DNA of 64,000 nt, taken from sequence record MT446411.1. The stretch is one strand, 5' to 3'. The notes under the pieces are model-generated. The model worked only from the letters and a program-made list of their open reading frames with translations. It searched no databases and was not told where the DNA came from. The position numbers and the translations under genes are program-made. This DNA is from Escherichia virus TH40. Below are positions 4,190 through 54,448 of the stretch, piece after piece. Every line of letters starts with the position of its first letter. The first letter of the stretch is position 1.

Positions 4190-4216
4190 AATATTTTTCT
4201 CGCAGTTCGGAGTAAT

Positions 4217-4324: not shown

Positions 4325-4827
4325 CAGTTAATACCTTGGCGTGCTTTCTCTTTAGCTATACATTTATTAATATAGCTCAGACGGTTTTGAGCAGAACGCT
4401 GATACATATCGCGATACTCATTGGCTTTTGGAGAACCCGTCTCTGCTGCCTGATAAGCTTCCGCGCGCATGATGTTTATCTGCATATTGATGTATGACAT
4501 GCAGACCTGTGAAATCTGGTTAACAGTATCCAGGTCATTTTGGCGCTTGGTTTCTGCTTCCAGTTTAGCAATGATTTCGTCATGCTTCGCAGCTTGTTCG
4601 CGTTTGTACTCAATTTCACGTTGAGCATATTTCGCGCAGTTATTTCCACATTGATTGTTGTCGCGTTTGTAGATAAGTCCAGTACCACCTTTGAAATCAA
4701 AGGAACCATTATGCACCTGACGGTCTGCAGCAATTCGCGCTTTACCAATCTCATTGGCATTAACAACATCGCCCTGGTAAGCACAACCAGATAGCAGCAT
4801 AACAGCTGCGATAGCTAACTTTTTCAT
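4324..4827 (-). CDS. Lipoprotein with coiled-coil region (start taken at MKKLAIAAVMLLSGC)
   Basis: Signal peptide plus lipobox LLSGC; GAGGAAA SD before internal Met; ORF track gives 4324..4854. Confidence 0.6.
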   Translation of the reverse strand: MKKLAIAAVMLLSGCAYQGDVVNANEIGKARIAADRQVHNGSFDFKGGTGLIYKRDNNQCGNNCAKYAQREIEYKREQAAKHDEIIAKLEAETKRQNDLDTVNQISQVCMSYINMQINIMRAEAYQAAETGSPKANEYRDMYQRSAQNRLSYINKCIAKEKARQGIN

Positions 4828-4977
4828 TGTATTTTCCTCAATTAAAACATTCATAACGGGCTTGGAGTCCCAAAAATACCCAACCCAAAATTAAAGTTGG
4901 AATCATATGCGGAGTCATTATTGCCCAATAGATTGACATACTAAAAAATGCAATCAGTACAATAATTGTAATTATCT

Positions 4978-5220
4978 TCATTTGGTTTCCTTGATGATAA
5001 TTACATGTGCATTTGATTTACGCTCAGCAACGAGTGCCCAGATAAATGCAATAAACCATCCGACCATTGTCCAACCTAACAGGAGGTTAACAAAGAAGAT
5101 TCCGCAATTACTTTTGGTTCCTCGCAGTAGCGCGATAATCCACGGCAGAAAATATGCCAGTGCAGCCAGGAAGAAAGAACCAGCACCAAGAACAACAGTA
5201 CCTGCAATTAATGTTTCCAT
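4978..5220 (-). CDS. imm: Superinfection-immunity (Imm)-like two-TM membrane protein
   Basis: 80 aa, two hydrophobic helices, LLGWTMVGW..WAL motif; located just downstream of gene 43 as imm is in T4. Confidence 0.6.
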   Translation of the reverse strand: METLIAGTVVLGAGSFFLAALAYFLPWIIALLRGTKSNCGIFFVNLLLGWTMVGWFIAFIWALVAERKSNAHVIIIKETK

Positions 5221-5240
5221 TTTAATATCCTTAATTTAAT

Positions 5241-5290
5241 CATCAGTAGTTGATGGAGTAATCATACGGCAATCCTTTGCCGTTGTAAAC
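5241..5290 (-). promoter_or_regulatory. T4-early-type promoter plus conserved leader (type A) upstream of imm
   Basis: Minus strand reads GTTTACA ... cATAAT-like ... CCATCAACTACTGA ... AAGGA ATG; seen directly. Confidence 0.5.
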
Positions 5291-5292
5291 AC

Positions 5293-40187: not shown

Positions 40188-40487
40188 TTAAAAAGAACCA
40201 GAGCCTTTAATTGTGTTCTGGCGACCTTTATTTTCGAATTCAGAATGGTCGATTTCGTATGCTTGTGCTACGCCAAAGGCCTTTTTAACTTTAGCTAAAG
40301 AACCTTTAGTTGTAACAATATTAAAAGTATTGCCTTTGGTAAAATCAACCAAATCCACTTGCACCCCTTGTTTACCAAGGCTTGCTACAATAGCATCAAC
40401 ATATTGTTGGTCTAAATTGCCTTGAACCCCAATTTGAAATGCTTTAGGAACTTTGGCTTCTGTGATAAATTCTTGATATGTTTTCAT
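40188..40487 (-). CDS. Internal-protein-like (capsid-targeting N-terminus MKTYQEFITE)
   Basis: 99 aa; N-terminal 10 residues match the T4 IP capsid targeting sequence MKTYQEFIAE. Confidence 0.65.
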   Translation of the reverse strand: MKTYQEFITEAKVPKAFQIGVQGNLDQQYVDAIVASLGKQGVQVDLVDFTKGNTFNIVTTKGSLAKVKKAFGVAQAYEIDHSEFENKGRQNTIKGSGSF

Positions 40488-40500
40488 ATTGTTTCTTTAA

Positions 40501-40815
40501 TCAAGCTTTAGGGAAATCGCGCAAAAATGCATCATAAAGTTTATTACCAATGCGACGAAATGCTTTTGCTGCATGAACGTTATCTGGGTTTGCAATTTTA
40601 ATCTGCATTACATGACTACCAGCCCATGATTTAGCTTCGTCATAATAACCTTTAATTTCTTTAATAGTCTTGCGTTTTCCACCAGGACCATCAACAGTAA
40701 TTTTCCACGAACCAGTGCTTGTTTCACTTGGTGGGGTTAACTGTTCAATCCAGACATAACCACCTTCAACACGTTGTTGAGTAGATTCAGTAATAAATTC
40801 TTGATAAGTTTTCAT
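40501..40815 (-). CDS. Internal-protein-like (start at internal MKTYQEFITES)
   Basis: ORF track gives 40501..40854; conserved CTS begins at the internal Met. Confidence 0.6.
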   Translation of the reverse strand: MKTYQEFITESTQQRVEGGYVWIEQLTPPSETSTGSWKITVDGPGGKRKTIKEIKGYYDEAKSWAGSHVMQIKIANPDNVHAAKAFRRIGNKLYDAFLRDFPKA

Positions 40816-40863
40816 TTTATATTCCATTGTTTGGTTGATAAAATCATTATACAACCTTTTTAG

Positions 40864-41280
40864 TTAAGCGTACACAGCTTTCCCATAGTATTTGTACCAG
40901 GTAGGCTTTTGAGAAATTTTCTCATTCAGTCTGGCTTGACTGATTTCAATTGACCAGATTGATGGTTGATAATCATTCTTCCATTCATCAGGAATATCAT
41001 TTAAATCTTGGGTAGAAATATCTTTTATATTAAACCCTCGCTTTAAACATTCAGCAATAAGTTCTTGATGACGGTTTTTAAGGAACAAAAGCTTATCATA
41101 AAAGAAGGTGACATGACCAGTCCCTAAAAGAAAAGATGATGGGATTTTAAAGTCAGACACCTTTTTACCATTTTGTACATGCTTACGAACAGCACCAAAC
41201 ACGCGAGGAAGCTCACGATATTCAGCCATAAGGTGTTGGTCAGCAAGTTCAGATACCAGGGTTAAATTAATGCGAGTCAT
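40864..41280 (-). CDS. denV: Endonuclease V (pyrimidine dimer DNA glycosylase, DenV)
   Basis: 138 aa; N-terminus [28 protein letters not shown] and most of the length match T4 endo V as recalled. Confidence 0.88.
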
Positions 41281-41287
41281 GTTTGTT

Positions 41288-41336
41288 CTCCGTAGTTGAT
41301 AGGGTCATTATAACCCTATCGTTTGGAGATGTAAAC
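41288..41336 (-). promoter_or_regulatory. Type-A early promoter-leader cassette upstream of denV (with GTTTACA -35)
   Basis: Forward ctccgtagttgatagggtcattataaccc...gatgtaaac read directly. Confidence 0.45.
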
Positions 41337-41824
41337 TAATAAGCGTCAAAAGTTCCAGTACGGAAAGTTTCAATAACTCGTTTGGCCCGGTTCGGAGTCT
41401 GGACTTTATACCATCTTGAGTCCGCCAGTTCCTTAGCAGCAGCTTCCCATGATTTAGCCTTGAGCAATCGCATACCCTTAGGAAAACCAGCAACACCAGC
41501 TACACCCATTTGGAATACCATATTAATGAGTGCGCAACGACGAACTTCATCCAGTACATCATAAACAGGTTTTAAGACAGGATGTTTCAAGATTCCAGAT
41601 TTAGCTTTTTCGACCGAACGATTAAACAATGTTTCGGCTTCGTGCTGGGTTATACGGCCATTACAGACGCGACCCATGAGCTTATCGAGCTCGGCACGAG
41701 CAACATCTTTCGATGGGTTCTTAGTTATCAGTTGTCCGATACCAATGGTCCAATAACCTTCGGTATCTTTATACAAATCCAACTTACAACCTTCATCTAT
41801 GCGTAACATTTCGAATATATTCAT
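41336..41824 (-). CDS. e: T4-type lysozyme (endolysin e)
   Basis: 162 aa; [25 protein letters not shown].. closely resembles T4 lysozyme. Confidence 0.93.
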
Positions 41825-41850
41825 AATACCCCCTTATATAGGGGTATTTA

Positions 41851-42312
41851 TTATCCGAAAATTTGAGTCAAAACCTTATACATCGATTTACCCATTACGT
41901 ATTGCCATTGACTTGGTTTAATCAGAGCAAATGCATCAAACTCTGGGACCGAACTACCATCCGGGAAGGTATGATATGCGGAGCATTTACTATGTCTGAA
42001 TTGCTCATGCTCGACCGGAACCGTGTACAAAAACAGGTGAAGGTTTTTATTATCTGAATAACGAAACTCGCCTAGGTCTTTTAAGAATGCCGGGTCATAC
42101 TTGGTAAAACCTGTTTCTTCTTCACATTCACGCATAGCTGCTTCAATCAGGGATTCACCGGCTTCAACATGACCCTTAGGGATATCCCATTTATGCGCAG
42201 GCATACCCGGTTTGCGAGAACCAGTCACGCGCCCCATGAATAACTCTTTATCTTCAGTCATGAAAATAATACCAGCAGATAATTCTTTCGCCGCGTTTTT
42301 CTTACTCATCAT
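41851..42312 (-). CDS. nudE: Nudix hydrolase (NudE-like), start taken at internal Met
   Basis: Nudix box GHVEAGESLIEAAMRECEEETGF; ORF track gives 41851..42438. Confidence 0.75.
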   Translation of the reverse strand: MMSKKNAAKELSAGIIFMTEDKELFMGRVTGSRKPGMPAHKWDIPKGHVEAGESLIEAAMRECEEETGFTKYDPAFLKDLGEFRYSDNKNLHLFLYTVPVEHEQFRHSKCSAYHTFPDGSSVPEFDAFALIKPSQWQYVMGKSMYKVLTQIFG

Positions 42313-42538
42313 CACGTTCCCAAGATTTTTTAAAGATTTCAGCCATAATAATTTCAATGCGTGTTTCTGTTGAAGGAGATTCACTACTAGAAGTTTGAAC
42401 TCTGTATTCAGAAATCGGGCGGAACAAGTCCAGGTCAATTTCTAAATCATCTTTGATTTCAACTTCGGGTGTACCTTTATCATAGGAATACAGGTAAGAA
42501 TCACATGACTCTGATTTAATATAAATTGCAATACTCAT
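42302..42538 (-). CDS. Hypothetical acidic protein (78 aa)
   Basis: ORF track. Confidence 0.35.
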   Translation of the reverse strand: MSIAIYIKSESCDSYLYSYDKGTPEVEIKDDLEIDLDLFRPISEYRVQTSSSESPSTETRIEIIMAEIFKKSWERDDE

Positions 42539-43116
42539 TTACGACATTCCTCAATAAAAGAGTTCAATGTATTTTTCTTTGTGATATTGTCATATACCTT
42601 TTTAACTTTAGAAATACGAAAAGGTACTTCAATAATCGCAGTCCATAAAAATGAGGCGATAATACCTGCAATGGCCGCAGTCACTGCTGCCCCGAATATG
42701 CAAATTGGCAAGTCATTTTTCGTTGTCAGGAAAAACCACAGGATTGGAAAAAATAGTATTCCCATCCAGGCATAGAACCTGGAGCACACTAACTTGTCAT
42801 ATTCATCGCTCCATGTACGAAAACCATATTTTTCACTATAACAAATCAATGGGTCAGGTGTTTGTTCTTTATGTGGTTCTGGTTGCCAACCTTTAACGAT
42901 GTGCTTCATTTTATATTCCTCAATTAAAAGCTCTTTCATATGGCGATTGCATCGCGACCAATCAACGTTTTCCACCTTGATTCCTTCATCGCCATCATCA
43001 AGGTCAGCCCAATATCTTTTGGTAATCATAAATTCATCCCTTGGAACTGGAATACCTGCACATCCTTGTGGACCTTTCATATCACCCATGCAACCGGGTT
43101 CATACATCATTACCAT
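42535..43116 (-). CDS. Hypothetical membrane protein (start uncertain; alternative start at 42908)
   Basis: ORF track; TM helices in C-terminal half; ends ..SFIEECRK. Confidence 0.45.
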   Translation of the reverse strand: MVMMYEPGCMGDMKGPQGCAGIPVPRDEFMITKRYWADLDDGDEGIKVENVDWSRCNRHMKELLIEEYKMKHIVKGWQPEPHKEQTPDPLICYSEKYGFRTWSDEYDKLVCSRFYAWMGILFFPILWFFLTTKNDLPICIFGAAVTAAIAGIIASFLWTAIIEVPFRISKVKKVYDNITKKNTLNSFIEECRK

Positions 43117-43796
43117 CCCTCCATAGGGAATTCCAGATATACTTGAGCATTAACGCGGATTTCATTGGTAATATTTTTAACACGGTCAGTGTTACGAGAT
43201 ACACGACCAAACCAGCGCCAACCGTTACTTACTGCACGAGAACCTGTATGCCATGTCTGCCAATCAAACTGGAGCAACGTGCGGTCAGGAGCATCCCACT
43301 TGGTTAATTCATTGGACTCAATTTTTTCCAGAACTTCTTTATGCCACTGGCGATAGATAAGTTCGCCTTCAGGAATCTGACTAAATTGTGCAGTTCCGGT
43401 TGCAAAATAAGTAGGGCACACATCAGCGTTAACAAGACCAAGAATATGTTCAGAATGGTAACGAGGATTATCATAATCAGGTTGCCCTGCAGTAATAAAG
43501 TGTTGACCAACCGGAATATCCGGGCGTGGTACATCGTCATGATGATAGCCAGGGATAGCTGGATACCAACCAGGCATCAACATATGAACCCGAGAATCAA
43601 ACACAACATGTTGATTAGTCCAATCAATTGGGAGATTGGCAATAAAGCTACGAGTGATTGGCCCGCCATTATCCCAAGCAAAACTCAAATCACAGTTAAA
43701 GAACATTGGTTCATTTTTGATTTGGTCATTTTGTACGTTATGTGCAAAACCACCTACTGCACGAGCTTGACTATTAAAAGTTTTAGGACCGTTCAT
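43110..43796 (-). CDS. Hypothetical protein (228 aa)
   Basis: ORF track; type-A leader upstream. Confidence 0.5.
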   Translation of the reverse strand: MNGPKTFNSQARAVGGFAHNVQNDQIKNEPMFFNCDLSFAWDNGGPITRSFIANLPIDWTNQHVVFDSRVHMLMPGWYPAIPGYHHDDVPRPDIPVGQHFITAGQPDYDNPRYHSEHILGLVNADVCPTYFATGTAQFSQIPEGELIYRQWHKEVLEKIESNELTKWDAPDRTLLQFDWQTWHTGSRAVSNGWRWFGRVSRNTDRVKNITNEIRVNAQVYLEFPMEGW

Positions 43797-43855
43797 AATA
43801 TTTTCCTCATTGATTGTGGGACCATTATGTCATAGCCCCATTTGGTTGTACACAC

Positions 43856-44866
43856 TTATTTTGAAAAAGGACGAATTAAATGTTGGTTAGCCTTGAAACG
43901 TTTAACATAGTCTTCGCGACCCAGGGTGTTGTACATATTCACTACTTCCTGGTAATGTTCCCAGGCATACTCACGAAACCATCCAGAAGTAATGGAGGTG
44001 CAGACTTTTTCCAGAGCAATATGGAAGCTCACGGATGGAGAGATACTAAACTCGTTAGGAACCTGCGAACGCTCCAGAGCGAGCACACATGCTTCTTCAT
44101 AAACCCCTGCCAGTTTAATAACATCAGGGAGTGCTTCAAATTTTTCACGCGAGGTCATGACTTCCGAATCATCCTTCATATAGAACTTATATGCAGGCTT
44201 ATCAGCAAGCGCCACGGCCTCGTGGATGGAGTCATGGTCAAGGGTATAGATTGTATCATTAAAGAAAGTTTTCTTGCCCACGTCTAGTTTAGGGTGGCTA
44301 TATGACAGTGTTTCTGCCTGACGTTGTAACATAATTTTCTGCAGTTCATCATTAAGAACAACACCCTTATTACGAAGGTAATTAATATGGCTCATGGTCT
44401 TCAGGAAGAATGGATTGTTCTTCAGGTAACGATGAGACAATTTAATTGCCAGACAAATATCAGGGGTCGCCCAATAGAAACCTGTAAGACGGTCTTTCTT
44501 AATATGATTTTCAGCGTATTTCAAGAGACGATAACTTGAGGTGAAATCTTCATCTTGAAGCTCACCAGTAATTTCTCGTACGTTGGTCAGGGCACGGACA
44601 ATATAAGCTTCAAAATAGGTTTCTTTGCCATTGTACATACATTTAAAAGCTTGGACATCAGGGTTATCCACAGGAACATGAGCACCGAACATACGTGCTT
44701 TAAAGTGGTTCCATGAGCCCTGGTCAGCGATGAAGTCCCAATCAGAGTTTTCAATTTTCTGACTTTCAATCAGACCAGCGTTATGTAATGCACGAGAACC
44801 AATAACTAACATCATAATATTTTCCTCAGATAACTTAAATTTCAGCAGCAGAGATATTAGATTCAT
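43856..44866 (-). CDS. Hypothetical protein (336 aa), possible nucleotidyltransferase-like N-terminus
   Basis: ORF track; N-terminal VIGSRALHNAGL..SDWDF loosely fits the NTase GS..D.D pattern. Confidence 0.5.
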   Translation of the reverse strand: MNLISLLLKFKLSEENIMMLVIGSRALHNAGLIESQKIENSDWDFIADQGSWNHFKARMFGAHVPVDNPDVQAFKCMYNGKETYFEAYIVRALTNVREITGELQDEDFTSSYRLLKYAENHIKKDRLTGFYWATPDICLAIKLSHRYLKNNPFFLKTMSHINYLRNKGVVLNDELQKIMLQRQAETLSYSHPKLDVGKKTFFNDTIYTLDHDSIHEAVALADKPAYKFYMKDDSEVMTSREKFEALPDVIKLAGVYEEACVLALERSQVPNEFSISPSVSFHIALEKVCTSITSGWFREYAWEHYQEVVNMYNTLGREDYVKRFKANQHLIRPFSK

Positions 44867-45065
44867 CTATCATCTCGGAGGCGGACCCCTTAACGATAGG
44901 AACCAATTTGCCATAGAGGTCTTCATTATAAGGGTCGTTGATACAGTGCGCATCTTCAAAACGAACACCGTAATCAGACTTCTTATAAACGAGACCGTAA
45001 ATCTTTGTAAACTTAGCGCGACTAATTTTTACGGGCTCATCAGCCATTGGAGCATAATACCACAT
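44835..45065 (-). CDS. Hypothetical protein (76 aa)
   Basis: ORF track; type-A leader upstream. Confidence 0.4.
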   Translation of the reverse strand: MWYYAPMADEPVKISRAKFTKIYGLVYKKSDYGVRFEDAHCINDPYNEDLYGKLVPIVKGSASEMIDESNISAAEI

Positions 45066-45168
45066 AATATTTTCCTCATTAGTTGACGAGATAATGATAC
45101 TACGTTTCTTTAGGCTTGTACACTAAATTTCTGCGCATAAGTCCTCCTATCACATCCTTGTGATTAAA

Positions 45169-45396
45169 TTATTTTCCTAACGAAATACGAGTAGGTTTTT
45201 TACCGAAATATTCTTCATAGGAACCATCTAAACGGCCCGCTTTAGACCGACAGTACGAATCATACTTTTTGTAATAAGTCAACTCTGTATTGTAACGTGG
45301 ATGTCTATCAGCCATAATAATACTTAACGGCCAACCTTTGGCGTAATCACGAAGACCATTTATTTTACGAATATATCTTTTCTTTAATTTTAACAT
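45169..45396 (-). CDS. Hypothetical basic protein (75 aa)
   Basis: ORF track. Confidence 0.4.
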   Translation of the reverse strand: MLKLKKRYIRKINGLRDYAKGWPLSIIMADRHPRYNTELTYYKKYDSYCRSKAGRLDGSYEEYFGKKPTRISLGK

Positions 45397-45614
45397 GAGC
45401 TCGGATACCAGATTTTACCATCCGGGTGAGCAACAAAGGTGCGTCCAGCTTCTTCACCATAACAAGAGCTATTCAACCAGTCTTCAAGACGAACTTCACC
45501 ATCATAATCGTCGAGCTCAATACCGAAATCTTGGGCAGAAGCCATATCTTTAACTTTCTTATACAGCGCAGCCAGTTCAAGAGCTGCTTTTTCTAATTCA
45601 TTAATATCAGACAT
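45390..45614 (-). CDS. Small protein, member of W-x-S-S-x-x-C C-terminal family (ends WYPSSC)
   Basis: 74 aa; C-terminal motif shared with the three following ORFs. Confidence 0.45.
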   Translation of the reverse strand: MSDINELEKAALELAALYKKVKDMASAQDFGIELDDYDGEVRLEDWLNSSCYGEEAGRTFVAHPDGKIWYPSSC

Positions 45615-45623
45615 TTTTATTCC

Positions 45624-45821
45624 TTAGCATTCGTAAGAGGAGGACACCCAAGAGGTACCACTAATAGTAATACAACCGTTATAAAGCGTGATATGTCGTT
45701 CTAGGTCACGAACACCGTCGATATAGATATCAGCTTCTTCTCGTTCTTCTTTACAAATCTGGATAACGTTTTCAATAGCTGCGGCTGCAGTACGGATTGC
45801 ACAATCTAATTCACGAGACAT
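45624..45821 (-). CDS. Small protein, W-V-S-S-S-x-E-C C-terminal family
   Basis: 65 aa; ends SWVSSSYEC; 3' nucleotide block conserved with neighbours. Confidence 0.5.
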   Translation of the reverse strand: MSRELDCAIRTAAAAIENVIQICKEEREEADIYIDGVRDLERHITLYNGCITISGTSWVSSSYEC

Positions 45822-45830
45822 AATAATTCC

Positions 45831-46112
45831 TTAACATTCAGAAGAGGAGGACACCCAACCACCTTTTTCCAGGTCAGTTGTATAGTCATGTTGGTTAACG
45901 ATAGCGTATTGGGCTTCACCGTAGTTTTCCCAATGAGCAAGGTCAGCTTTCAGGGCGCCAGGAGAATAATAGTCACCGCCCATACCGCGAGCAGGGTATA
46001 TATTAAAATGAGTCTCATATTTGTTTGCAATTTCCTCGGCACGACGAATAGCTTTATGGATATCATTTACTGCGTTGGCCAGTTCTTTATTTTTACTGTA
46101 ATCGTTCATCAT
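45831..46112 (-). CDS. Small protein, W-V-S-S-S-x-E-C C-terminal family
   Basis: 93 aa; ends GWVSSSSEC. Confidence 0.5.
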   Translation of the reverse strand: MMNDYSKNKELANAVNDIHKAIRRAEEIANKYETHFNIYPARGMGGDYYSPGALKADLAHWENYGEAQYAIVNQHDYTTDLEKGGWVSSSSEC

Positions 46113-46121
46113 ACCATTTCC

Positions 46122-46412
46122 TTAACACATCTCAGAAGAGGAGACCCAAGCACCAACGGTAACAACACCATTTTCAACCCGACCGCCATTGGCTTCAATA
46201 TGATGGGTAAACCATTCAGAGCATTCATAACCAACTGGATGATATGTACGGCCGGTGCCGTAATCACCAGTGCTGAATTCGATACCATATTCATCTGCGA
46301 TTTCTTCACAGTGTTTTTCAATTTCAGAGGTCTTATTTAGAAGAGAATAGATAGCTTTTTCTGCAGATTTCTCATCATAATACTTGGGGATAGCAATTTC
46401 AATTTTATTCAT
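46122..46412 (-). CDS. Small protein, W-V-S-S-S-x-E-C C-terminal family
   Basis: 96 aa; ends AWVSSSEMC. Confidence 0.5.
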   Translation of the reverse strand: MNKIEIAIPKYYDEKSAEKAIYSLLNKTSEIEKHCEEIADEYGIEFSTGDYGTGRTYHPVGYECSEWFTHHIEANGGRVENGVVTVGAWVSSSEMC

Positions 46413-46762
46413 GATTTACATTCCTTAATAAAGGTTTCAAGGTCATTACGTTTTGTTTTGTCTAGGAACTTATTATACTCAGCCATTGCTGAAGCATATC
46501 TCTTATATATGGGAGCATTCAAGGCGTTTGTATAACAGATATCATACACAACCGGGATAAAATAGGCCACAACAGCCGGAGCAATTATCATAAAGAAGCC
46601 CATCTCAATAGGCATGACTCCCTCGATTGCAGCCATAACCGTGGTCATTACCAGACCAACCAGACCACCGAGCATGGCAGTGACAATCCCTAATAATAAA
46701 TTGGCACCAATATCATATTCAGCCAATTGATAAACATGTGATGCAAGACTAGGCCGTTCCAT
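46409..46762 (-). CDS. Hypothetical membrane protein (start at internal Met with AAGGAGG SD)
   Basis: ORF track gives 46409..46855; strong SD before MERPSLASH; ends ..ETFIKECKS. Confidence 0.45.
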   Translation of the reverse strand: MERPSLASHVYQLAEYDIGANLLLGIVTAMLGGLVGLVMTTVMAAIEGVMPIEMGFFMIIAPAVVAYFIPVVYDICYTNALNAPIYKRYASAMAEYNKFLDKTKRNDLETFIKECKS

Positions 46763-47108
46763 TACGAACCTCCTTAATAAATTCTTCGGCACATTTAATT
46801 TTGTGCTCTTCTTGTAGGGAAACACATTTTTGTTCCCACTCTTTAACTCGTCCACGATATCCTTTATTCATATGATTTTGATGCCACACATTTATCAATA
46901 TCATACACAAGACCGTAATAAAAGGAGCGGCGATTATTAGTGCCCAGGCAACTCCAACACTAATGATATCCATATCCCCACAAAGCACCATCATTATAAC
47001 CCCAACAATGCATATAGACAGAGCCCCAAATGGAGGCATAAGGTCTTTATCAATTTTGTCTGCGTATACAAATTTTTCTGGTTTACTTGGTAGATATAGC
47101 GTTCGCAT
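46749..47108 (-). CDS. Hypothetical membrane protein (start at internal Met)
   Basis: ORF track gives 46749..47282; SD before MRTLYLPSK; ends ..EEFIKEVRNGTA. Confidence 0.4.
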   Translation of the reverse strand: MRTLYLPSKPEKFVYADKIDKDLMPPFGALSICIVGVIMMVLCGDMDIISVGVAWALIIAAPFITVLCMILINVWHQNHMNKGYRGRVKEWEQKCVSLQEEHKIKCAEEFIKEVRNGTA

Positions 47109-47655
47109 TTTGAGCCCCTTTAGCATATTCACGACATTCAGTAATAAAACGATTAAGCTTCCGTTGTTGTTTACGACTCTCTGATGTGTATTCAGCCGCC
47201 AAATCAAGAAGTTCAGCTTTATCATAATTTTTAATATCAGCATAAGCTGGACGACGGTCAACCATTCCAAAGTGGTCACCATTTTCTAACATCAAATAAC
47301 ATACCAAATGGTCATCATCATCCGCATCAATAAGTCGTTTATAATCGCTTGGGTCGTTTAATGCATACACTGAATAACGTAGTCCAGCGAATTCCACTCG
47401 TTGGATACCCAGATTTACGTCAATAATTTCCAAGGCATCTGCAAAAGAAAGGTCTTCAGCTAAAGCAAAAATAAAAGGCAATTTTGTAGTATCACCACGG
47501 CTAGTTGTTCTTCTTAAGAAATCATTGGAATAACCTAGGTCACCACGGATTCTATAAAGAACTGTATTAGTTTCAGTGGCAAGACCACTACCGCCAAACC
47601 ATTCTACATTTGATATAAGATTATCGTATGAAGTCATAATATTCTCCTCTCCCAA
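47083..47655 (-). CDS. Hypothetical protein (190 aa)
   Basis: ORF track; contains ..NRFITECREY.. near C-terminus. Confidence 0.45.
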   Translation of the reverse strand: MGEENIMTSYDNLISNVEWFGGSGLATETNTVLYRIRGDLGYSNDFLRRTTSRGDTTKLPFIFALAEDLSFADALEIIDVNLGIQRVEFAGLRYSVYALNDPSDYKRLIDADDDDHLVCYLMLENGDHFGMVDRRPAYADIKNYDKAELLDLAAEYTSESRKQQRKLNRFITECREYAKGAQNANAISTK

Positions 47656-47681
47656 TTAAGGGGGCAAAGCCCCCTTTTATC

Positions 47682-48275
47682 TTACTTAAGTGAATTGATG
47701 TATTCTTCAATGTCAGCGGATGTGGTATCCACACCGACCTGCGGGCCTTTGAAGGTTTCAACACGCATCAGAGTGTCTTCAATATCAATCTTAGTCAATG
47801 CAGCGATTTCAACAACATCATCTGCAGTCGCAATACCCAGGGCAGATACCTTACGAGTTTCGCGGATGTATTCCAGTTTAACAGCTAGTTCCTGACGAGA
47901 ATCATCCAGCTCTTTAACTTTCAATTTAATTTCATTACGCATTTCAACATAATCATCTGCCTTCTTACGAAGTTGTTTAGCAGTGCGACGATACAGAAGA
48001 CCCAGTTTAGCATGGACTTGCACATCTGCTCCATCAGCAATCAGTTTACGGATTTCACGCTCTTTTGAAGCAGCGAGCTGGTCTTTTTCATTCGCTAACT
48101 CGCGGATGCGTTTTTCTTCATTAACAGACTTAACGTGGGCAGTCTGGAGCTCAGTAATCTTGTCAATCAGGGTAGAAGCCGCTTTGGTATACTGGTCTTC
48201 AATAGACAGGTTTTGTGCCATTGCAGTACCCAGTTTGGAGCGGATGAATTCAACAAGTTTCTTTAAAGTATTCAT
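47682..48275 (-). CDS. Hypothetical coiled-coil protein (197 aa)
   Basis: ORF track; heptad-rich, charged. Confidence 0.45.
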
Positions 48276-48351
48276 GGTATTTCCTTCAGTTGGTTAATGT
48301 TTTATTATCCAGGGAACATACTATCATGTTCCCGTTAAAGCGTACACTGAT

Positions 48352-48657
48352 TTAGATTTTATTTTCCTGCACACCATAATACAGTTCATCAGATACAATA
48401 TTCAGGATGTGGCGAACATATTCATCATGGTATTGACAGTCAAAATCAAATGCAACAGTAGTTTCCGCTTCACGAGTGAATTTAACTTGCACATTCAGGT
48501 GATTAGTAACGTGAGTTAATTTATCAGTAAAGAACTCTTTTGCTACCGCCTGCTGGACTTGCACTTTGAACTTGGTGTTGCGAATCATATTTTCAGCAGA
48601 TGCGAAATTACCAGTTTTATCAAAGTCAACAAGCGCCAGGTTGATGATGAATTTCAT
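48352..48657 (-). CDS. Hypothetical protein (101 aa)
   Basis: ORF track; type-B leader upstream. Confidence 0.45.
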   Translation of the reverse strand: MKFIINLALVDFDKTGNFASAENMIRNTKFKVQVQQAVAKEFFTDKLTHVTNHLNVQVKFTREAETTVAFDFDCQYHDEYVRHILNIVSDELYYGVQENKI

Positions 48658-48662
48658 TTTAT

Positions 48663-48726
48663 TCTCCAGTTTTATTTGGTAACTCAGTATGGAATCATTA
48701 TGCCTTAAAGCAGGGGGCTTGTATAC
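48663..48726 (-). promoter_or_regulatory. Type-B early promoter-leader cassette
   Basis: Forward ttctccagttttatttggtaactcagtatggaatcattatgc read directly. Confidence 0.45.
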
Positions 48727-48737
48727 CCCCTTTTGAA

Positions 48738-49169
48738 TTAAATTTCAAATTCTTTGCGGAAGTTGGAAGCATAAGATTGAACTGATGCTTTGTTGAATCC
48801 AAACTCACGCACAATCATATCAATAACAGCTCTGCGAGCAGCACCATTAGACATATTAACAGTTTTGAACATATCATAGCATAAATCTTTGTTGCTCATA
48901 CCGGAGCGTTTAGGTGCCTTACGCTCAGCTTTTGGTTCAGCTTTAGGAGTAGGTTTAACCTGTCCATCATTCAGACCTTTAAAAATTTTACCCGCCAGAG
49001 TTGCCAGTTTAGCAGCTTCGCCACGAGTGATACCAAATACTGCCGGGTTAAATGAAATACCTTCAGCTGTTAAACGTTTGAAGAACATACGCGCTGCGGA
49101 TTGCGCTTCAGCTTCAGAAGAGTTGTTTAATGCCAGTTTAACGTACTTAATCAGTTTTGAAGTTTTCAT
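48738..49169 (-). CDS. Hypothetical protein, paralog of 49253..49678 (shared C-terminal ..VQSYASNFRK)
   Basis: ORF track gives 48738..49220; type-B leader sits before internal Met MKTSKL. Confidence 0.45.
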   Translation of the reverse strand: MKTSKLIKYVKLALNNSSEAEAQSAARMFFKRLTAEGISFNPAVFGITRGEAAKLATLAGKIFKGLNDGQVKPTPKAEPKAERKAPKRSGMSNKDLCYDMFKTVNMSNGAARRAVIDMIVREFGFNKASVQSYASNFRKEFEI

Positions 49170-49171
49170 TT

Positions 49172-49245
49172 TATTATCCCGTTTGTTTATTTGGTAACTC
49201 AGTATGGGATAATTATACACTATCCCACCTGGAAGTAAAACACTT
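49172..49245 (-). promoter_or_regulatory. Type-B early promoter-leader cassette
   Basis: Forward cccgtttgtttatttggtaactcagtatgggataattatacac read directly. Confidence 0.45.
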
Positions 49246-49252
49246 TTCTCAA

Positions 49253-49678
49253 TTATTTTTGAGCTTTGCGGAAGTTAGAAGCATAAGACTGAACAACAGT
49301 CTTTTTGATATCATGGGTAGTAACCAGAACATCAATCAGAGCGCGGCGAGCTGCATTATCATTCATATCAATTTCTGCAAATGCCTGGAAGCAAATGTCA
49401 CGGGCGTTACCAGATTTGGACTGGATTTTTTCTTCTTTAACTTCTTCAATTGGGAATTCAATCATTTCAGCTTGGATTAATTCAATGATGGACTCTTTTG
49501 ACTGTTTGGTGTTTACCTTCAGTTCAGAATTAAGGGACTTAGCGATGGCAACAATCTGGGTTGAAGTCAGATGGATAAGGGCATCTTCACGAATGCAGAT
49601 TTCACATACTTCGTCAGCAACCATTTTGTTAGTGATGCGGGTAACAGAAAATGCAGAGGTCAGGGTCAGAAAGTTCAT
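49253..49678 (-). CDS. Hypothetical protein, paralog of 48738..49169
   Basis: 141 aa; C-terminal ..NAARRALIDVLV...VVQSYASNFRK matches neighbour. Confidence 0.45.
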   Translation of the reverse strand: MNFLTLTSAFSVTRITNKMVADEVCEICIREDALIHLTSTQIVAIAKSLNSELKVNTKQSKESIIELIQAEMIEFPIEEVKEEKIQSKSGNARDICFQAFAEIDMNDNAARRALIDVLVTTHDIKKTVVQSYASNFRKAQK

Positions 49679-49682
49679 TTTA

Positions 49683-49758
49683 TTTCTCCAAAGTTTTTGT
49701 GATTCAGTGTGTAACTCAGTATGGAATCATTATGCACCCGGTCAATTCGGATGTACAC
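49683..49758 (-). promoter_or_regulatory. Type-B early promoter-leader cassette
   Basis: Forward gtgtaactcagtatggaatcattatgcacccg...gatgtacac read directly. Confidence 0.45.
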
Positions 49759-49805
49759 TACTTTTTGAAGAAATATTAAAAATAAACCCGCCGGAGCGGG
49801 TTTGA

Positions 49806-50360
49806 TTAGTTCTTATAAAAACGGAAGGGATTGATATGAAAGGCTAACATAGCTTTCGGGATAGGACGGGACAGAAGACTTTTTAGCTTCCAACCACAAT
49901 ACACGCGCAGATAAAAGGTGATTCCACCAACTTTAAGATAAGGTACGGAAGCGAACACGCCCCATGCATTATCATTCCACATCCAGAGCCAGCCATGGTG
50001 AGCTTTATCCGGGGAGCCCGATTCAACATCAGGATTACCTTTATAATGGAATTTAGAATCACAATCGCGGCCCAGCTTATGATAAGCAAAATTGTAGGCT
50101 TTGTTTCGCCAGAGCCAGGCCACTCGCTGGAAGTAAACGCCTAACGGCCATTTTCTGATTTTTTCCCAGCGTTTAACATGACCACGGTCGCCATCAATTG
50201 GGTTGTCGTATGTCATCATCCAGTCAAATCCAAACGGAAGCTTACCAGTCTTTTTGTTATGGAACGGCACTACAAATGGTGTAAGGATAACAGCCAGAAT
50301 CATGGAGATAAAATCCAGTGGCACTAACAGAATCCAGCTTAGATATTTTAAAAGTTTCAT
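49806..50360 (-). CDS. Hypothetical membrane-anchored protein (184 aa), late-promoter-like TATAAATA upstream
   Basis: ORF track; N-terminal TM; minus-strand TATAAATA at 50387-50394. Confidence 0.45.
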   Translation of the reverse strand: MKLLKYLSWILLVPLDFISMILAVILTPFVVPFHNKKTGKLPFGFDWMMTYDNPIDGDRGHVKRWEKIRKWPLGVYFQRVAWLWRNKAYNFAYHKLGRDCDSKFHYKGNPDVESGSPDKAHHGWLWMWNDNAWGVFASVPYLKVGGITFYLRVYCGWKLKSLLSRPIPKAMLAFHINPFRFYKN

Positions 50361-50393
50361 AAATTTCCTTAGTTATGGGTACGTTATATTTAT

Positions 50394-50421
50394 AAAAAAG
50401 CCCCAACCTTTCGGAAGGGGC
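50394..50421 (-). terminator. Rho-independent terminator (GC hairpin followed by U6 on minus-strand transcript)
   Basis: Forward aaaaaaGCCCCAACCTTTCGGAAGGGGC read directly; follows the 127-aa gene. Confidence 0.55.
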
Positions 50422-50459
50422 TATACCTTGTCGGGGTTCCACCTGCAAGGCAAGTGTTC

Positions 50460-50843
50460 TTATCCGCGGGCGAATGCCATTGCAGCGCGTTCGTTGGCAC
50501 GGTCAGTGATGTTCAAGAATTTATCACGAGCGATTTCGATTGGAGCGCCAACCCAGTCAGCGGCTCCATTACCTGGAGATTGTTTAGGACGAACCATATA
50601 AGTTGAAACTTTGGAACCAGCTAGTTTAGCACCAGGTGCAGCGGCATTCTTAACGTCTTTAGCTTTGATACCAAAACCAGTTACAATGCCCCAAGAAACA
50701 CCATTAACTGGTTTCTTGAACATAACACGGTCGCCAATTGAAACCCCAGCTTTTTCTGGAGCTACTAAAGAAAATTTACCGGCTTCAGTCAGTACGGATT
50801 CGGTGATGGTATTGCGATTTAAAAATTCTGCATATGTAAGCAT
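50460..50843 (-). CDS. Hypothetical protein (127 aa) with CTS-like N-terminus MLTYAEFLNR
   Basis: ORF track; N-terminus loosely resembles MKTYQEFI; GC-richer codon usage than neighbours. Confidence 0.45.
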   Translation of the reverse strand: MLTYAEFLNRNTITESVLTEAGKFSLVAPEKAGVSIGDRVMFKKPVNGVSWGIVTGFGIKAKDVKNAAAPGAKLAGSKVSTYMVRPKQSPGNGAADWVGAPIEIARDKFLNITDRANERAAMAFARG

Positions 50844-50899
50844 TTTGTTTTTCCATTATTAGGGTTGTTGTTAATATTTATATTCCATAGTACCGGATG

Positions 50900-50985
50900 C
50901 ACCACCCGCTCGGATTTCTCATACTACCGGGCGCACCGCCCGCTCTGGAAAAACTCCGTAAAAGGTGCGCCGTTTCAGCTGTGAT
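50900..50985. repeat. GC-rich non-coding stretch with a tandem direct repeat and an 8-bp inverted repeat
   Basis: accggatgcaccacccgctc / accgggcgcaccgcccgctc direct copies; ggcgcacc ... ggtgcgcc inverted; no ORF of 60 aa or more. Confidence 0.4.
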
Positions 50986-51084
50986 ATAAGGGGCCATTAA
51001 CAAAACATAAAGATTTATTAATGTCAGTCCTTAAACAGGGAACTTCAGTCCGACGACTTACCGGTAGCGACCCGGTTTCTTGTT

Positions 51085-51160
51085 TGGTCGAGACAGTAGG
51101 AATCGAACCTACGACCCAGGACTTAGAAGGTCCTTGCTCTTCCTTCTGAGCTATGCCTCG
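51085..51160 (-). tRNA. tRNA-Arg (anticodon UCU)
   Basis: Manual fold of reverse complement: 7-bp acceptor CGAGGCA/UGUCUCG, anticodon loop CUUCUAA, T-loop UUCGAUU, encoded CCA. Confidence 0.7.
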
Positions 51161-51293
51161 TGCTTGTTCATAGCGGGGTGGACTCGAACCACCAATATTA
51201 AGTCACTCATGCTCCAAGCATGCAGGGCACTTACCCCGGACGGAATCGAACCGCATCTACAATACCTATCGCCATGATAATTTAAAATAAGTT
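51161..51293 (-). ncRNA. tRNA-like structured RNA candidate (two T-arm-like hairpins, no canonical cloverleaf)
   Basis: GGUUCGAUUCC and GGUGGUUCGAGUCCACC T-arm-like elements between two tRNAs; could not be folded into a standard tRNA by hand. Confidence 0.3.
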
Positions 51294-51367
51294 TGGTGGC
51301 CCTGGGTGGAATCGAACCACCATCCAGCGATTATGAGTCGCTCGCTTGACCGTCCAGCTACAGGGCC
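51294..51367 (-). tRNA. tRNA with CAU anticodon (Met or lysidine-type Ile)
   Basis: Manual fold: acceptor GGCCCUG/CAGGGCC, anticodon stem-loop AGCGA-CUCAUAA-UCGCU, T-loop UUCGAUU, encoded CCA. Confidence 0.7.
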
Positions 51368-51445
51368 TTAATTCTATTATGAAAGGCTCTTTGAGGGAAG
51401 AACCTTTGGTAATAGAGGGTACTTATTAATAATAACGCGTTTTTA

Positions 51446-51922
51446 TTAAAGCATATCAAGTGCTTTAACGTTCAGGATTTGGATTTCTTCTTCGATGATG
51501 TATAATTTCACCCACGAAACTACGCGTATAAAATCACTATCATATTCCACTGGCTCGCCCAGCAATTCCTGGAGAGAACACAATAATTCAAATTCCTGGT
51601 CATTGTCACCTTCAACCAGATTTTCAATACAAAGTGTTTTGTTAATGAATTCAGGAGTTAATTGACCAGATTTTACACCAGATTCAATGTGTGCGATAAT
51701 CAAGTCTTTAACTATGTCCCATTCTGAATTACCACATTTATTGCGGTTATTACAATGAGAGCCTTGAAAAAGTTCCAGGATATATTTGTACTGCTGGATT
51801 TCTTGTTCTTCTACACCAAATATTGTCTGGGTTTTATAGTTGTCACCATCATTTTCCAAGGTTTCAATTTCAATCACATAACCTTTAGGGATGGTCTGAC
51901 CAAATTTAATATTCATAATCAA
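51446..51922 (-). CDS. Hypothetical acidic protein (158 aa)
   Basis: ORF track. Confidence 0.45.
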   Translation of the reverse strand: MIMNIKFGQTIPKGYVIEIETLENDGDNYKTQTIFGVEEQEIQQYKYILELFQGSHCNNRNKCGNSEWDIVKDLIIAHIESGVKSGQLTPEFINKTLCIENLVEGDNDQEFELLCSLQELLGEPVEYDSDFIRVVSWVKLYIIEEEIQILNVKALDML

Positions 51923-52347
51923 CCTTCATCAACAATAGTATGGGTATTAGCATTAACAATCTGCCACCAGTCAAAACGGTTAGAACCATATTGAGGCTTA
52001 TTCTCGTTTTCTTTAATGATATCACGCAGTTCATCTTCGGTAGCGGCTTTTGCGATTAGGTCTGCATAACCGCCACGGGGATAATAGTTATCGCCAGCAA
52101 AGAGTAAAAAGTTTGTTTTGATATTCTTGAATTCTTCAAGAGTAATAACCGTTCCAGATGGTTGAACAATATCTACGTAACTATATCCTAATTTCTGGGC
52201 ATTATCTACCGCTTCAAGCAGGGTGTCATGTGCCCACCCAATTTGACATTCTGGTTTTTCAGATGGATTTGCCTGATAATCTGCATACACTTTATACATT
52301 TTACTCACCTTTAGAGATTTTATCCATAACGAAAGAGATTGAACCAA
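51919..52347 (-). CDS. Hypothetical protein (142 aa)
   Basis: ORF track. Confidence 0.45.
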   Translation of the reverse strand: MVQSLSLWIKSLKVSKMYKVYADYQANPSEKPECQIGWAHDTLLEAVDNAQKLGYSYVDIVQPSGTVITLEEFKNIKTNFLLFAGDNYYPRGGYADLIAKAATEDELRDIIKENENKPQYGSNRFDWWQIVNANTHTIVDEG

Positions 52348-52486
52348 TTAAGAATGCAACTACTAAAGAGATTATATTCTCAGAAGTTGAAAGCATATTC
52401 AACATAAAGCCAGCAAACATGCTAAAACCAAAAGCGGTAACAGCAACAAGGGCAGTAACATTTCTAATTAATTCGCAACGTTTCAT
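52301..52486 (-). CDS. Hypothetical small membrane protein (61 aa)
   Basis: ORF track; type-A promoter-leader immediately upstream supports expression. Confidence 0.4.
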   Translation of the reverse strand: MKRCELIRNVTALVAVTAFGFSMFAGFMLNMLSTSENIISLVVAFLIGSISFVMDKISKGE

Positions 52487-52492
52487 TTTATT

Positions 52493-52543
52493 CTCCTCAG
52501 TAGTTAATGGGATAATTATGCACTATCCCATTCAAAAGTACAC
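52493..52543 (-). promoter_or_regulatory. Type-A early promoter-leader cassette
   Basis: Minus strand reads GTGTAC -17 nt- CATAAT TATCCCATTAACTACTGAGGAG; seen directly. Confidence 0.5.
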
Positions 52544-52777
52544 TTATTTTTTACGGAAAATTGATTTATACTGTTTAGCCCATTTCTCGATAACTTCTGC
52601 CGGACCCTGGATAACAAAATAGTCCCCAAACTCTTCACCGCCGAGCTGACCGTAATTATCTAAGGCGTCGCGGAGAGTTCCATAAGGCATTTCGCCCATT
52701 TTATCTTTCTTGCCGGTGTAAATGAATTGCACTTTAACATCAGCAGTTTCATTAATAAATTCTTGATAAGTTTTCAT
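52544..52777 (-). CDS. Internal-protein-like (CTS MKTYQEFINE)
   Basis: 77 aa; T4 IP-type capsid targeting N-terminus; GGAGA SD. Confidence 0.65.
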   Translation of the reverse strand: MKTYQEFINETADVKVQFIYTGKKDKMGEMPYGTLRDALDNYGQLGGEEFGDYFVIQGPAEVIEKWAKQYKSIFRKK

Positions 52778-52778
52778 G

Positions 52779-52830
52779 TTGTCTCCAGTAGTTGATGGGA
52801 TAATTATACTGCAGTTATCCCAGCGCGTAT
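52779..52830 (-). promoter_or_regulatory. Type-A early promoter-leader cassette upstream of an ip-like gene
   Basis: Forward ctccagtagttgatgggataattatactgcagttatccc read directly. Confidence 0.45.
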
Positions 52831-52832
52831 AC

Positions 52833-53075
52833 TTATTTTAAGTCTTCCAGACGTTTTTTCATCTTGGTACCATTCTTAGCAATTTCGCCTGCATCAGAAC
52901 AAAGAGCAAGGAGAGCTTTAACTTTACCCTGGTCGCCTTTAAAAGATGATGCATCTACAGAATCAGCAAGTTCTTTGATGCGAGCAAACAGACGCTCTGC
53001 TTCAGCAAGGGCTTGACCAAGTTTAACTTCCATACCATGAGAAGATTCATTAATAAATGTTTGATAAGTTTTCAT
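52833..53075 (-). CDS. Internal-protein-like (CTS MKTYQTFINE)
   Basis: 80 aa; CTS-like N-terminus. Confidence 0.6.
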   Translation of the reverse strand: MKTYQTFINESSHGMEVKLGQALAEAERLFARIKELADSVDASSFKGDQGKVKALLALCSDAGEIAKNGTKMKKRLEDLK

Positions 53076-53083
53076 TTGAAATC

Positions 53084-53356
53084 CTATTTTAGATAAATTG
53101 CGTATTTTTTATACCCAGCTGTCTCATGGCGGAGACCCTTGTCATTGGCAAAACGCTCAATGTTATTAATTTGGTTCTGGTCAAGTTCTGAAATGTCAAA
53201 CGCGAAAAAGTTGCGTTTGTTTCCAATTGTTATATGGTCAGTTAAGTCAATGCTATACAGGTGATTGATATTGTCAATCATAGCTTTGACTGCTTTACTA
53301 ATTTTTACTTCTTCATTCAGTTGGGACTCGTTGAAAAGTTCATTAAAAGTTTTCAT
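53084..53356 (-). CDS. Internal-protein-like (N-terminus MKTFNELFNE)
   Basis: 90 aa; diverged CTS; minus-strand TATAAATA late-promoter-like box at 53366-53373. Confidence 0.55.
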   Translation of the reverse strand: MKTFNELFNESQLNEEVKISKAVKAMIDNINHLYSIDLTDHITIGNKRNFFAFDISELDQNQINNIERFANDKGLRHETAGYKKYAIYLK

Positions 53357-53364
53357 AAGAAACC

Positions 53365-53697
53365 TTATTTATACAGTTTAGCTAGTTCTTTACGTCCGCG
53401 AGCAGACATAATGAATTGTTCATCACCAATTTTGAAATAAGCCATGCCGCCGTCAACAGCGATACCAATTTCTTTAGTACCTTCTTTACCTTTCCACTTG
53501 CCACCAGATTTTAGGACAGCTTCAACTGCAGCTTTGGAATATTTGGATGTTTGAAAACGTTCATTACCAATCTGAAAGAAAACACCATCTGCATTTTTGG
53601 ATAAACCAAATTTCAGAGAGCCTTCACTATCATCAATTGATTTAGTCTCATTGATGGCGGATTCGGCTAAAAACTCATTATAAGTCTTGATGTTCAT
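53365..53697 (-). CDS. Internal-protein-like (start at internal MNIKTYNEFLAE)
   Basis: ORF track gives 53365..53730; GGAG SD before internal Met; CTS-like N-terminus. Confidence 0.55.
   Translation of the reverse strand: MNIKTYNEFLAESAINETKSIDDSEGSLKFGLSKNADGVFFQIGNERFQTSKYSKAAVEAVLKSGGKWKGKEGTKEIGIAVDGGMAYFKIGDEQFIMSARGRKELAKLYK

Positions 53698-53757: not shown

Positions 53758-54448
<691 letters not shown>

Follow-up and report, generated by a model that had tools for sequence, protein, structure and literature searches.

Two arrays of T4-type internal-protein genes in a Gaprivervirus genome, with an unlabelled sixth member and a candidate seventh

Introduction

The internal proteins (IPs or Ips) of bacteriophage T4 carry an N-terminal capsid targeting sequence (CTS), and mutational work on IPIII has established that its first ten residues suffice for encapsidation, with residues 4 and 7 as the main determinants of targeting, and residues 8 and 10 as those of processing (PMC9026906). 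The prohead protease gp21 cleaves after the Glu of an L/I-x-E motif, and the propeptides of the IPs are 10-19 residues long (PMC9026906). With respect to function, T4 IPI* inhibits the GmrSD of strain CT596 (PMC3012670), while infection of ECOR17 requires IPIII, which remains active if the host expresses it without its tag (PMC9391042). Silas et al. (2025) subsequently reported that T4 Ip1, Ip2 and Ip3 inhibit GmrSD type IV restriction enzymes, a different one in each case (PMC12373910). At least ten Ips have been reported from the tag alone, of which none besides Ip1-3 has a known target (PMC12373910), and Rao and Black describe the internal proteins of the T-even phages as a diverse, defence-countering set with the CTS alone in common (PMC3012670; also PMC12373910). 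Here, we describe genes of this type in a stretch of 64,000 nucleotides (nt) from Escherichia virus TH40 (MT446411.1), to which we refer as the window: six tagged open reading frames (ORFs) in two arrays, and a candidate seventh located between them.

The window belongs to the genome of a T4-type myovirus of the genus Gaprivervirus (VR7/VR26/SP18 group), and the 14-kb stretch around the arrays is 91-95% identical, over 80-94% of its length, to the Gaprivervirus genomes TH55, UPEC07, VR26, SP18 and VR7. The phenomenon itself is textbook knowledge, as published work and GenBank annotation already cover the tag, the loci, the way the cassettes behave and most of the gene names. What we add, judging from sequence comparisons, is the recognition of one ORF (F) as an unlabelled member of the class, as well as homologue-based support for another (G) as a putative seventh member that would represent a new family. 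Taken as a whole, it is likely that the seven genes encode T4-type internal proteins of Gaprivervirus, which are probably injected and act as cassettes.

Results

Six ORFs combine a T4-type targeting sequence with a predicted prohead-protease site

An initial annotation, made by a model from the DNA letters alone, listed six ORFs that begin with MKTYQEFI(T/N)E or a close variant, and pointed to a seventh ORF as a possible diverged relative. All six are present on the minus strand, and their N-termini bear out this description. They are listed here together with the seventh ORF (a slash marks the predicted cleavage point):

A, 40188-40487, minus strand: Ip7-family gene, 99 amino acids (aa); N-terminus MKTYQEFITE/A; predicted mature protein of 89 aa, isoelectric point (pI) 9.3
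B, 40501-40815, minus strand: Ip10-family gene, 104 aa; N-terminus MKTYQEFITE/S; predicted mature protein of 94 aa, pI 9.6
C, 52544-52777, minus strand: Ip6-family gene, 77 aa; N-terminus MKTYQEFINE/T; predicted mature protein of 67 aa, pI 7.8
D, 52833-53075, minus strand: Ip5-family gene, 80 aa; N-terminus MKTYQTFINE/S; predicted mature protein of 70 aa, pI 8.8
E, 53084-53356, minus strand: Ip9-family gene, 90 aa; N-terminus MKTFNELFNE/S, a variant tag
F, 53365-53697, minus strand: orthologue of VR7 gp156, 110 aa; N-terminus MNIKTYNEFLAE/S, that is MN-IKTYNEFLAE/S, with the tag starting at residue 3
G, 50460-50843, minus strand: candidate internal protein, 127 aa; predicted mature protein of about 107-112 aa, pI about 10.3

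The identification of this tag with the T4 capsid targeting sequence was supported by comparison to T4, in which both IPII and IPIII start with MKTYQEFIAE/A, and IPI with MKTFKEFTSTTTPVSTITE/A. When the six-frame translation of the 64-kb window was searched for the pattern KT[YF]x[ET][FL][ILF]xE, six matches were obtained, in every case at the start of one of the six ORFs, compared to 0 in 200 shuffles. The residues that determine CTS targeting are retained in all seven proteins, with Y or F at position 4 and F at position 7 in all except E, which has L there; in F, the register is shifted by two.

We further looked for L/I-x-E prohead-protease sites in the sequences, and found one within the first 15 residues of each of A-F, and within the first 20 residues of all seven proteins. 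A-D contain I-x-E at residues 8-10 (ITE/A in the case of A), F contains L-A-E at residues 10-12, and G contains two sites, at residues 13-15 and 18-20. The F-N-E at residues 8-10 of E is non-canonical, and the canonical site of this protein, LNE/E, is found at residues 13-15. Because every member thus has an L/I-x-E within its first 10-20 residues, the similarity is not limited to a few N-terminal residues without a protease site, which the initial annotation had named as an outcome that would refute its reading. The proteins that would result from cleavage are 7.5-11.1 kDa in size with pI values of 7.8-10.3, compared to 8-20 kDa and 9.0-9.7 for the T4 IPs.

At the DNA level, the 30 nt that encode the tag are near-identical among A-D and T4 ipII/ipIII, even at synonymous positions, while both flanks diverge immediately, a pattern that is compatible with an additional role as a recombination anchor. 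An exact TATAAATA, the T4 late-promoter box, is located upstream of E (by 17 nt) and of G; within the window as a whole this box is not enriched (6 observed vs 4.8 expected), and scans for sigma-70-like promoters and terminators around both arrays gave no result above shuffle expectation.

The arrays are located at the ip loci of T4

The gene order of the window is T4-like, starting with vs.8, A, B, denV, the e lysozyme gene, nudE and many small e.x-type ORFs, followed by tRNA-Arg and tRNA-Met, trna.3, trna.4, the four tagged ORFs C-F, 57B, 57A and gene 1. The landmarks used here are:

denV, 40864-41280
e lysozyme gene, 41336-41824
tRNA-Arg and tRNA-Met, 51085-51160 and 51294-51367

As this order matches that of T4, array 1 (A and B) could be assigned to the T4 ipII/ipIII locus (vs.8 / denV / e), and array 2 (C-F) to the T4 ipI locus (trna.4 / 57B). 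By location, six of the seven proteins are thus encoded within one of these loci, and G is encoded between them, in the tRNA / e.6 region. Adjoining array 2, gene 57B (53758-54213, minus strand) encodes a full-length Acb1 protein (Pfam PF23474, E 1.2e-59), which acts against the cyclic-oligonucleotide-based antiphage signalling system (CBASS), so that this array abuts another counter-defence gene.

Cassette content differs between nearly identical phages

We compared the tagged genes across seven Gaprivervirus genomes. Ip7, Ip9 and F are constant in all seven, and the remaining genes come and go. Ip10 is absent from TH55 and ECML-359. SP18 lacks Ip6, and TH55 and ECML-359 carry a 47%-identical variant in its place. 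Neither VR7 nor SP18 has Ip5, while VR25 has a 50%-identical version of it between denV and e. Other tagged proteins appear in turn: an 87-aa protein like RB69 ORF125c in VR7, VR25, SP18 and ECML-359 (not in the window), a 92-aa protein in VR7 and SP18 only, and an 89-aa protein unique to TH55. G is present in TH55 and ECML-359, and missing from VR7, VR25, VR26 and SP18; the window combines VR26-like arrays with a TH55-type G gene. The content of each locus therefore differs between nearly identical phages, and the ip genes act like exchangeable cassettes at the two hypervariable loci that correspond to T4 ipII/ipIII and ipI, with a candidate third site in the tRNA region.

Five of the six tagged genes have already been named

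A-E are already named ip7, ip10, ip6, ip5 and ip9, respectively, in GenBank records of close relatives. Four of the six tagged ORFs match PHROG families annotated as internal head or virion proteins, with E-values of 1e-41 to 1e-56. A belongs to phrog_2667 ("internal head protein", E 3.6e-42) and is 97-98% identical to ip7 of VR26 and VR7; C belongs to phrog_8111 ("internal virion protein", E 2.5e-51) and is 97-100% identical to ip6 of the same two phages; D belongs to phrog_3499 ("internal head protein", E 2.3e-41) and is 97.5% identical to VR26 ip5; and E belongs to phrog_7673 ("internal head protein", E 3.3e-56) and is 100% identical to ip9 of VR7 and VR26. B is 99-100% identical to named ip10 genes, including 100% identity to VR7 gp128, "putative internal head protein Ip10"; its best database match is SP18 Ip10, and it is also found in phrog_3966. 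According to GenBank notes and the citations in PMC12373910, the names Ip5-Ip10 trace to Repoila et al. (1994); a literature search on the names Ip5, Ip6, Ip7 and Ip9 returned only papers on inositol phosphates and unrelated interview studies. The Ip7 orthologues of VR7 (L006, 2677-2976) and VR25 (L007, 6677-6976) start with MLTYQEFITE rather than MKTY, from which it follows that a Lys2-to-Leu change is tolerated in a conserved internal-protein gene.

The cargo domains show no sequence relation beyond the tag

The initial annotation stated that the proteins diverge completely behind the tag. This holds at the sequence level, as neither BLASTP of the cargos nor profile comparison of the B and F families revealed a convincing relation beyond the tag. 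In an all-against-all BLASTP of the cargos with the tag removed, nothing better than E = 0.008 was found in a ten-sequence database. We rejected the weak BLASTP similarities as signs of homology (e.g., Ip6 vs F, 27% identity over 71 residues), considering that they span the tag and stem from a tiny database. A paralogous relation between B and F, suggested by their shared membership of phrog_3966, was likewise rejected: BLASTP of B against F aligns the tag only, and in an hhalign comparison of the family of F (12 sequences) with that of B (3 sequences), only 15 tag columns align, although with alignments this shallow hhalign could miss very remote homology. Since only these tag columns align, the joining of B and F in phrog_3966 is probably driven by the tag.

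F is an unlabelled member of the class

F is annotated as "hypothetical" in every record examined. VR7 and VR26 annotate it as a 121-aa ORF (to 53730), while ECML-359 and VR25 annotate the short form. As a GGAG Shine-Dalgarno sequence is found 5 nt before the ATG at 53697, we prefer the 110-aa start over the ORF to 53730. Homologues of F fall into eleven protein clusters, including those of Edwardsiella phage PEi20 and Salmonella phage STP4-a, and all eleven start with MKTY[NQDK][ED]F (one with an inserted V), followed by [LI]xE[SA]. In the lineage of the window, the ancestral Met codon has become ATC (Ile), and the start is an ATG two codons upstream. Given that its orthologues start with the canonical tag, and that the ancestral Met codon was lost in this lineage, F can be considered a genuine tag-bearing protein and, on these sequence grounds, a bona fide member of the internal-protein class that has so far remained unlabelled.

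Structure prediction, which the initial annotation had proposed for the cargos, was carried out for F and G. The AlphaFold model of F (predicted local distance difference test score, pLDDT, of 76; predicted template modelling score, pTM, of 0.63) shows a tag helix and a disordered linker at the predicted cleavage site, followed by a cargo consisting of two repeats of four strands and a helix. In agreement with this tandem fold, the cargo contains an internal duplication, the halves of which align at E 1e-5. We considered and rejected the assignment of F to PUR-alpha or MRP1/MRP2-like proteins, nucleic-acid-binding folds that also comprise two repeats of four strands and a helix, as Foldseek matches in the PDB had E-values of 0.006 or worse and template modelling (TM) scores of 0.45-0.60. 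Against BFVD, E-values of 0.001 or below were obtained only for the orthologue of F itself and for one uncharacterised Bacillus phage protein, and weaker matches were mostly uncharacterised. The fold matches of the model are thus suggestive of a topology, and not usable for function. For G, the model (pLDDT 60, from five sequences) gave matches of E 0.13 at best, which we regard as meaningless, and is of too low quality to be interpreted.

G is a candidate seventh member with two remote homologues

G starts with MLTYAEFLNRNTITESVLTEA, as stated in the initial annotation, and its full N-terminus reads MLTYAEFLNRNTITE/SVLTE/A. It is present in only 15 phage records, in all of which it is at least 99% identical, and it has no match in Pfam, PHROG or NCBIfam. 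An exhaustive HMMER search of 1.84 billion representatives yielded only two real relatives, P0016 and P0017, both of which are encoded on T4-like metagenome contigs at the same genomic position as G: one of the two genes adjoins a homologue of the ORF at 48738-49220, and the other is located between the tRNA end and e.6. The idea that G is a diverged seventh member is supported by these homologues, as each carries a CTS-like N-terminus of its own. P0017 (125 aa) is 38-42% identical to G, and its N-terminus is MKSFKEFMLSEK, or MKSFKEFMLSE/K. P0016 (202 aa) is 40-47% identical to G over the cargo, and its N-terminus is MYTFKEFLVESELDLITEA, or MYTFKEFLVE/SELDLITE/A. Because about 85 unrelated residues separate the tag of P0016 from the domain homologous to G, the tag in this family is conserved independently of the alignment.

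It could be argued that G is not an internal protein, and that its resemblance to a CTS either arose by chance or is a remnant within a gene that was acquired horizontally and has some other function. G lies outside both arrays, and its GC content of 44.8% exceeds the 39.4% of the window. Its second residue is Leu and its tenth is Arg, which leaves the canonical place without a cleavage site. Moreover, no PHROG or Pfam family includes it, the family has only three divergent members, and its structure model is poor (pLDDT 60). Two of these features are however also found in established members of the class: the bona fide Ip7 of VR7 and VR25 starts with MLTY, like G, and T4 IPI lacks Glu10, as G does, and is cut at ITE/A (residues 17-19). 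Both homologues, at 38-47% identity in the cargo, have retained differently spelled CTS-like N-termini with L/I-x-E, P0016 despite its insertion, and the loose motif M.[TS][YF].EF is found four times in the window against an expectation of 0.045, an excess of about 90-fold. We therefore consider coincidence or a relic a possibility to be taken seriously, but a minority one, and favour the reading in which G is an internal protein that is packaged and processed, which we hold to be probable. In that case, G would represent a new family that occupies a third cassette site, within the tRNA region.

Other ORFs between the arrays

The hypervariable stretch between the arrays encodes several further proteins on the minus strand:

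43856-44866, minus strand: larger ORF with the uncharacterised Pfam families DUF7277 and DUF7275, also present on metagenome contig L009
45390-46412, minus strand: four tandem small ORFs of 74, 65, 93 and 96 aa
48738-49220 and 49253-49678, minus strand: two ORFs that are paralogous over their C-terminal ~65 residues (46% identity, E 8e-17) and end in ...VQSYASNFRK
49806-50360, minus strand: larger ORF of the uncharacterised Pfam family DUF7338

Three of the four tandem ORFs terminate in W-V-S-S-S-x-x-C (GTSWVSSSYEC, GGWVSSSSEC and GAWVSSSEMC), and the remaining one ends in ...WYPSSC and contains an internal WLNSSC. The same C-terminal tail is found on the metagenomic T4-like contig L009. It looks like a C-terminal motif common to small proteins that diverge elsewhere, and in this sense mirrors the N-terminal tag. 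No Pfam family was found for the paralogous pair at 48738-49220 and 49253-49678; on metagenome contig L008, the homologue of 48738-49220 comes after the G-like gene.

Discussion

A model of injected anti-defence proteins

By analogy to T4, the N-terminal 10-20 residues of the seven proteins would act as a capsid targeting sequence that binds the prohead scaffolding core. The gp21 homologue of the phage would then cut after the Glu of L/I-x-E to remove the tag, after which the small basic mature proteins (7.5-11 kDa) would remain in the head with the DNA, and enter the cell with it at infection. Once there, they would most likely neutralise first-line host defences against the incoming DNA, each cargo probably having a different target. 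For A-D and F, we consider packaging and processing highly likely, and for E, with its variant tag, still likely. Their injection is inferred from experiments on T4. That some or all of the seven counter host defences is, on the same analogy, reasonably probable, and injected anti-defence proteins are the best-supported model for these genes.

Several observations weigh against this model, or limit how far it reaches. Our searches of the literature returned no virion proteome for this phage or for Gaprivervirus, so packaging is an inference, and the genes for the prohead protease and the scaffold are located beyond the 64-kb window; the gp21 protease and gp22 scaffold genes are core genes of T4-related phages (PMC9026906). 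Some of the N-termini deviate from the canonical form, as E has F-N-E instead of L/I-x-E at residues 8-10 and L instead of F at position 7, F has two additional residues before the tag, and G has Arg at position 10 and sits outside both arrays. With respect to function, BLASTP of the cargos against T4 IPI, IPII and IPIII found nothing better than E 0.1, and searches of all seven proteins against Pfam, NCBIfam and PDB sequences gave nothing above threshold. Since no cargo resembles IPI, IPII or IPIII, the targets of these proteins are not transferable from T4; by sequence, the cargos are not members of the T4 IPI*, IPII or IPIII families, and could still work like them. Finally, Gaprivervirus has been reported to lack a dCMP hydroxymethylase gene, while keeping dCTPase, DenA, DenB and Alc, and an unknown non-canonical base has been suggested (PMC8056088, PMC12115623). 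In line with this, neither gene 42 (dCMP hydroxymethylase) nor beta-gt was found between uvsX (2803-3981) and imm (4978-5220) on the minus strand of the window, where the interval (2803-5293, minus strand) holds only one other ORF, of 176 aa (4324-4854), without a Pfam hit. VR7 likewise has no gene 42, a-gt or b-gt annotated at the canonical positions. As the genus is reported to lack a hydroxymethylcytosine (hmC) synthase, GmrSD that depends on glucosyl-hmC may not be relevant to it.

One could propose that each of the seven mature proteins inhibits a GmrSD-type (type IV, modification-dependent) enzyme in the manner of T4 Ip1-3, with the array serving as a panel matched to GmrSD subtypes. Indeed, Ip1, Ip2 and Ip3 are non-homologous and yet each blocks one GmrSD variant, and the authors of that study propose that the diversity of GmrSD drives that of the Ips at the hotspot (PMC12373910). 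The reported absence of an hmC synthase from the genus, the lack of annotated gene 42, a-gt and b-gt in VR7, and the single 176-aa ORF between uvsX and imm in the window all speak against this: if the DNA indeed lacks glucosyl-hmC, then GmrSD of known specificity is not the threat, and we regard it as doubtful that all seven proteins fit this description. Less probable, and in our view unlikely, is that the packaged proteins serve the virion itself, through neutralisation of DNA charge, assembly of the core or prohead, or aid in ejection, rather than through inhibition of defences. Such roles would be consistent with the basic mature forms (pI 7.8-10.3 throughout), with the roughly 300 copies of each IP per T4 head, with the slower head building and smaller burst of IPIII mutants (PMC9026906), and with the contacts between internal-protein lysines and DNA phosphates (PMC3012670). 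A generic role in charge or assembly would not, however, predict unrelated cargos, or the gain and loss of cassettes among phages that are ~92-95% identical in DNA; in addition, all three T4 IPs have specific defence targets (PMC12373910), and T4 without all three is viable on laboratory strains (PMC9026906).

The conserved 30 nt might also be kept for a reason that concerns the nucleic acid, as a shared translation-initiation region or as a recombination site for cassette exchange. The near-identity of the tag nucleotides in A-D and T4 ipII/ipIII, next to flanks that diverge at once, could be read in this way, and exchange of the cassettes does seem to occur. In E, F and G, and in the homologues of G and F, however, the amino-acid pattern is kept with other codons and spellings, and in T4 the ten residues alone package foreign proteins, while point changes at positions 4 and 7 abolish targeting (PMC9026906). 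The tag could serve in recombination as well as in targeting, without the former replacing the latter, and we hold a purely nucleic-acid explanation to be very improbable. Among these options, we retain the model of injected anti-defence proteins. A more far-reaching version of it, in which G founds an unrecognised internal-protein family with a third cassette site and an IPI-style long propeptide, and in which a genus reported to lack the hmC-glucosylation pathway keeps seven injected proteins, at least some of them countering defences other than glucosyl-hmC-dependent GmrSD, can be put forward only tentatively.

As internal proteins are active ahead of all phage gene expression, inhibitors of first-line defences are especially to be expected among them. 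Known targets are limited to those of T4 Ip1-3; Ip5, Ip6, Ip7, Ip9, Ip10, the gp156 family (F) and the G family are uncharacterised candidates. The window thus offers seven candidates with predicted mature N-termini for screening against defence systems. If the genus does lack the hmC-glucosylation pathway and still keeps seven injected proteins, at least some of these would counter defences beyond the glucosyl-hmC-dependent GmrSD enzymes, which are the sole known targets of the class.

Comparison with known systems

The closest match is formed by the named genes Ip5, Ip6, Ip7, Ip9 and Ip10 of VR7 (HM563683) and VR26 (KP007362), of which A-E are the same genes in a mosaic relative, at 97-100% identity and with matching PHROG families. 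With T4 IPI-III, the proteins share a tag that in A-D is identical to that of IPII/IPIII at 8-9 of 10 residues, an L/I-x-E gp21 site, two genomic loci, and small basic mature proteins; G and E have a cleavage site further downstream, as does IPI (ITE/A, residues 17-19). They differ from T4 in that the cargos have no detectable homology to those of IPI-III, that there are seven genes rather than three, and that the order at the first locus is Ip7-Ip10-denV-e here and denV-ipII-ipIII-e in T4. The ejection or "E" proteins of giant phages such as phiKZ and SPN3US are likewise head-internal, injected, and cleaved after Glu at a short motif by gp21-like proteases (PMC9026906), but are large and numerous, have no MKTYQEF tag, and follow other targeting rules. 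The likeliest functional model is the arms race between Ip1/Ip2/Ip3 and GmrSD (PMC12373910; Bair et al. 2007), which shares with this locus a hotspot of non-homologous injected proteins behind a common leader; as the genus of this phage is reported to lack the hmC pathway, the class of target may differ.

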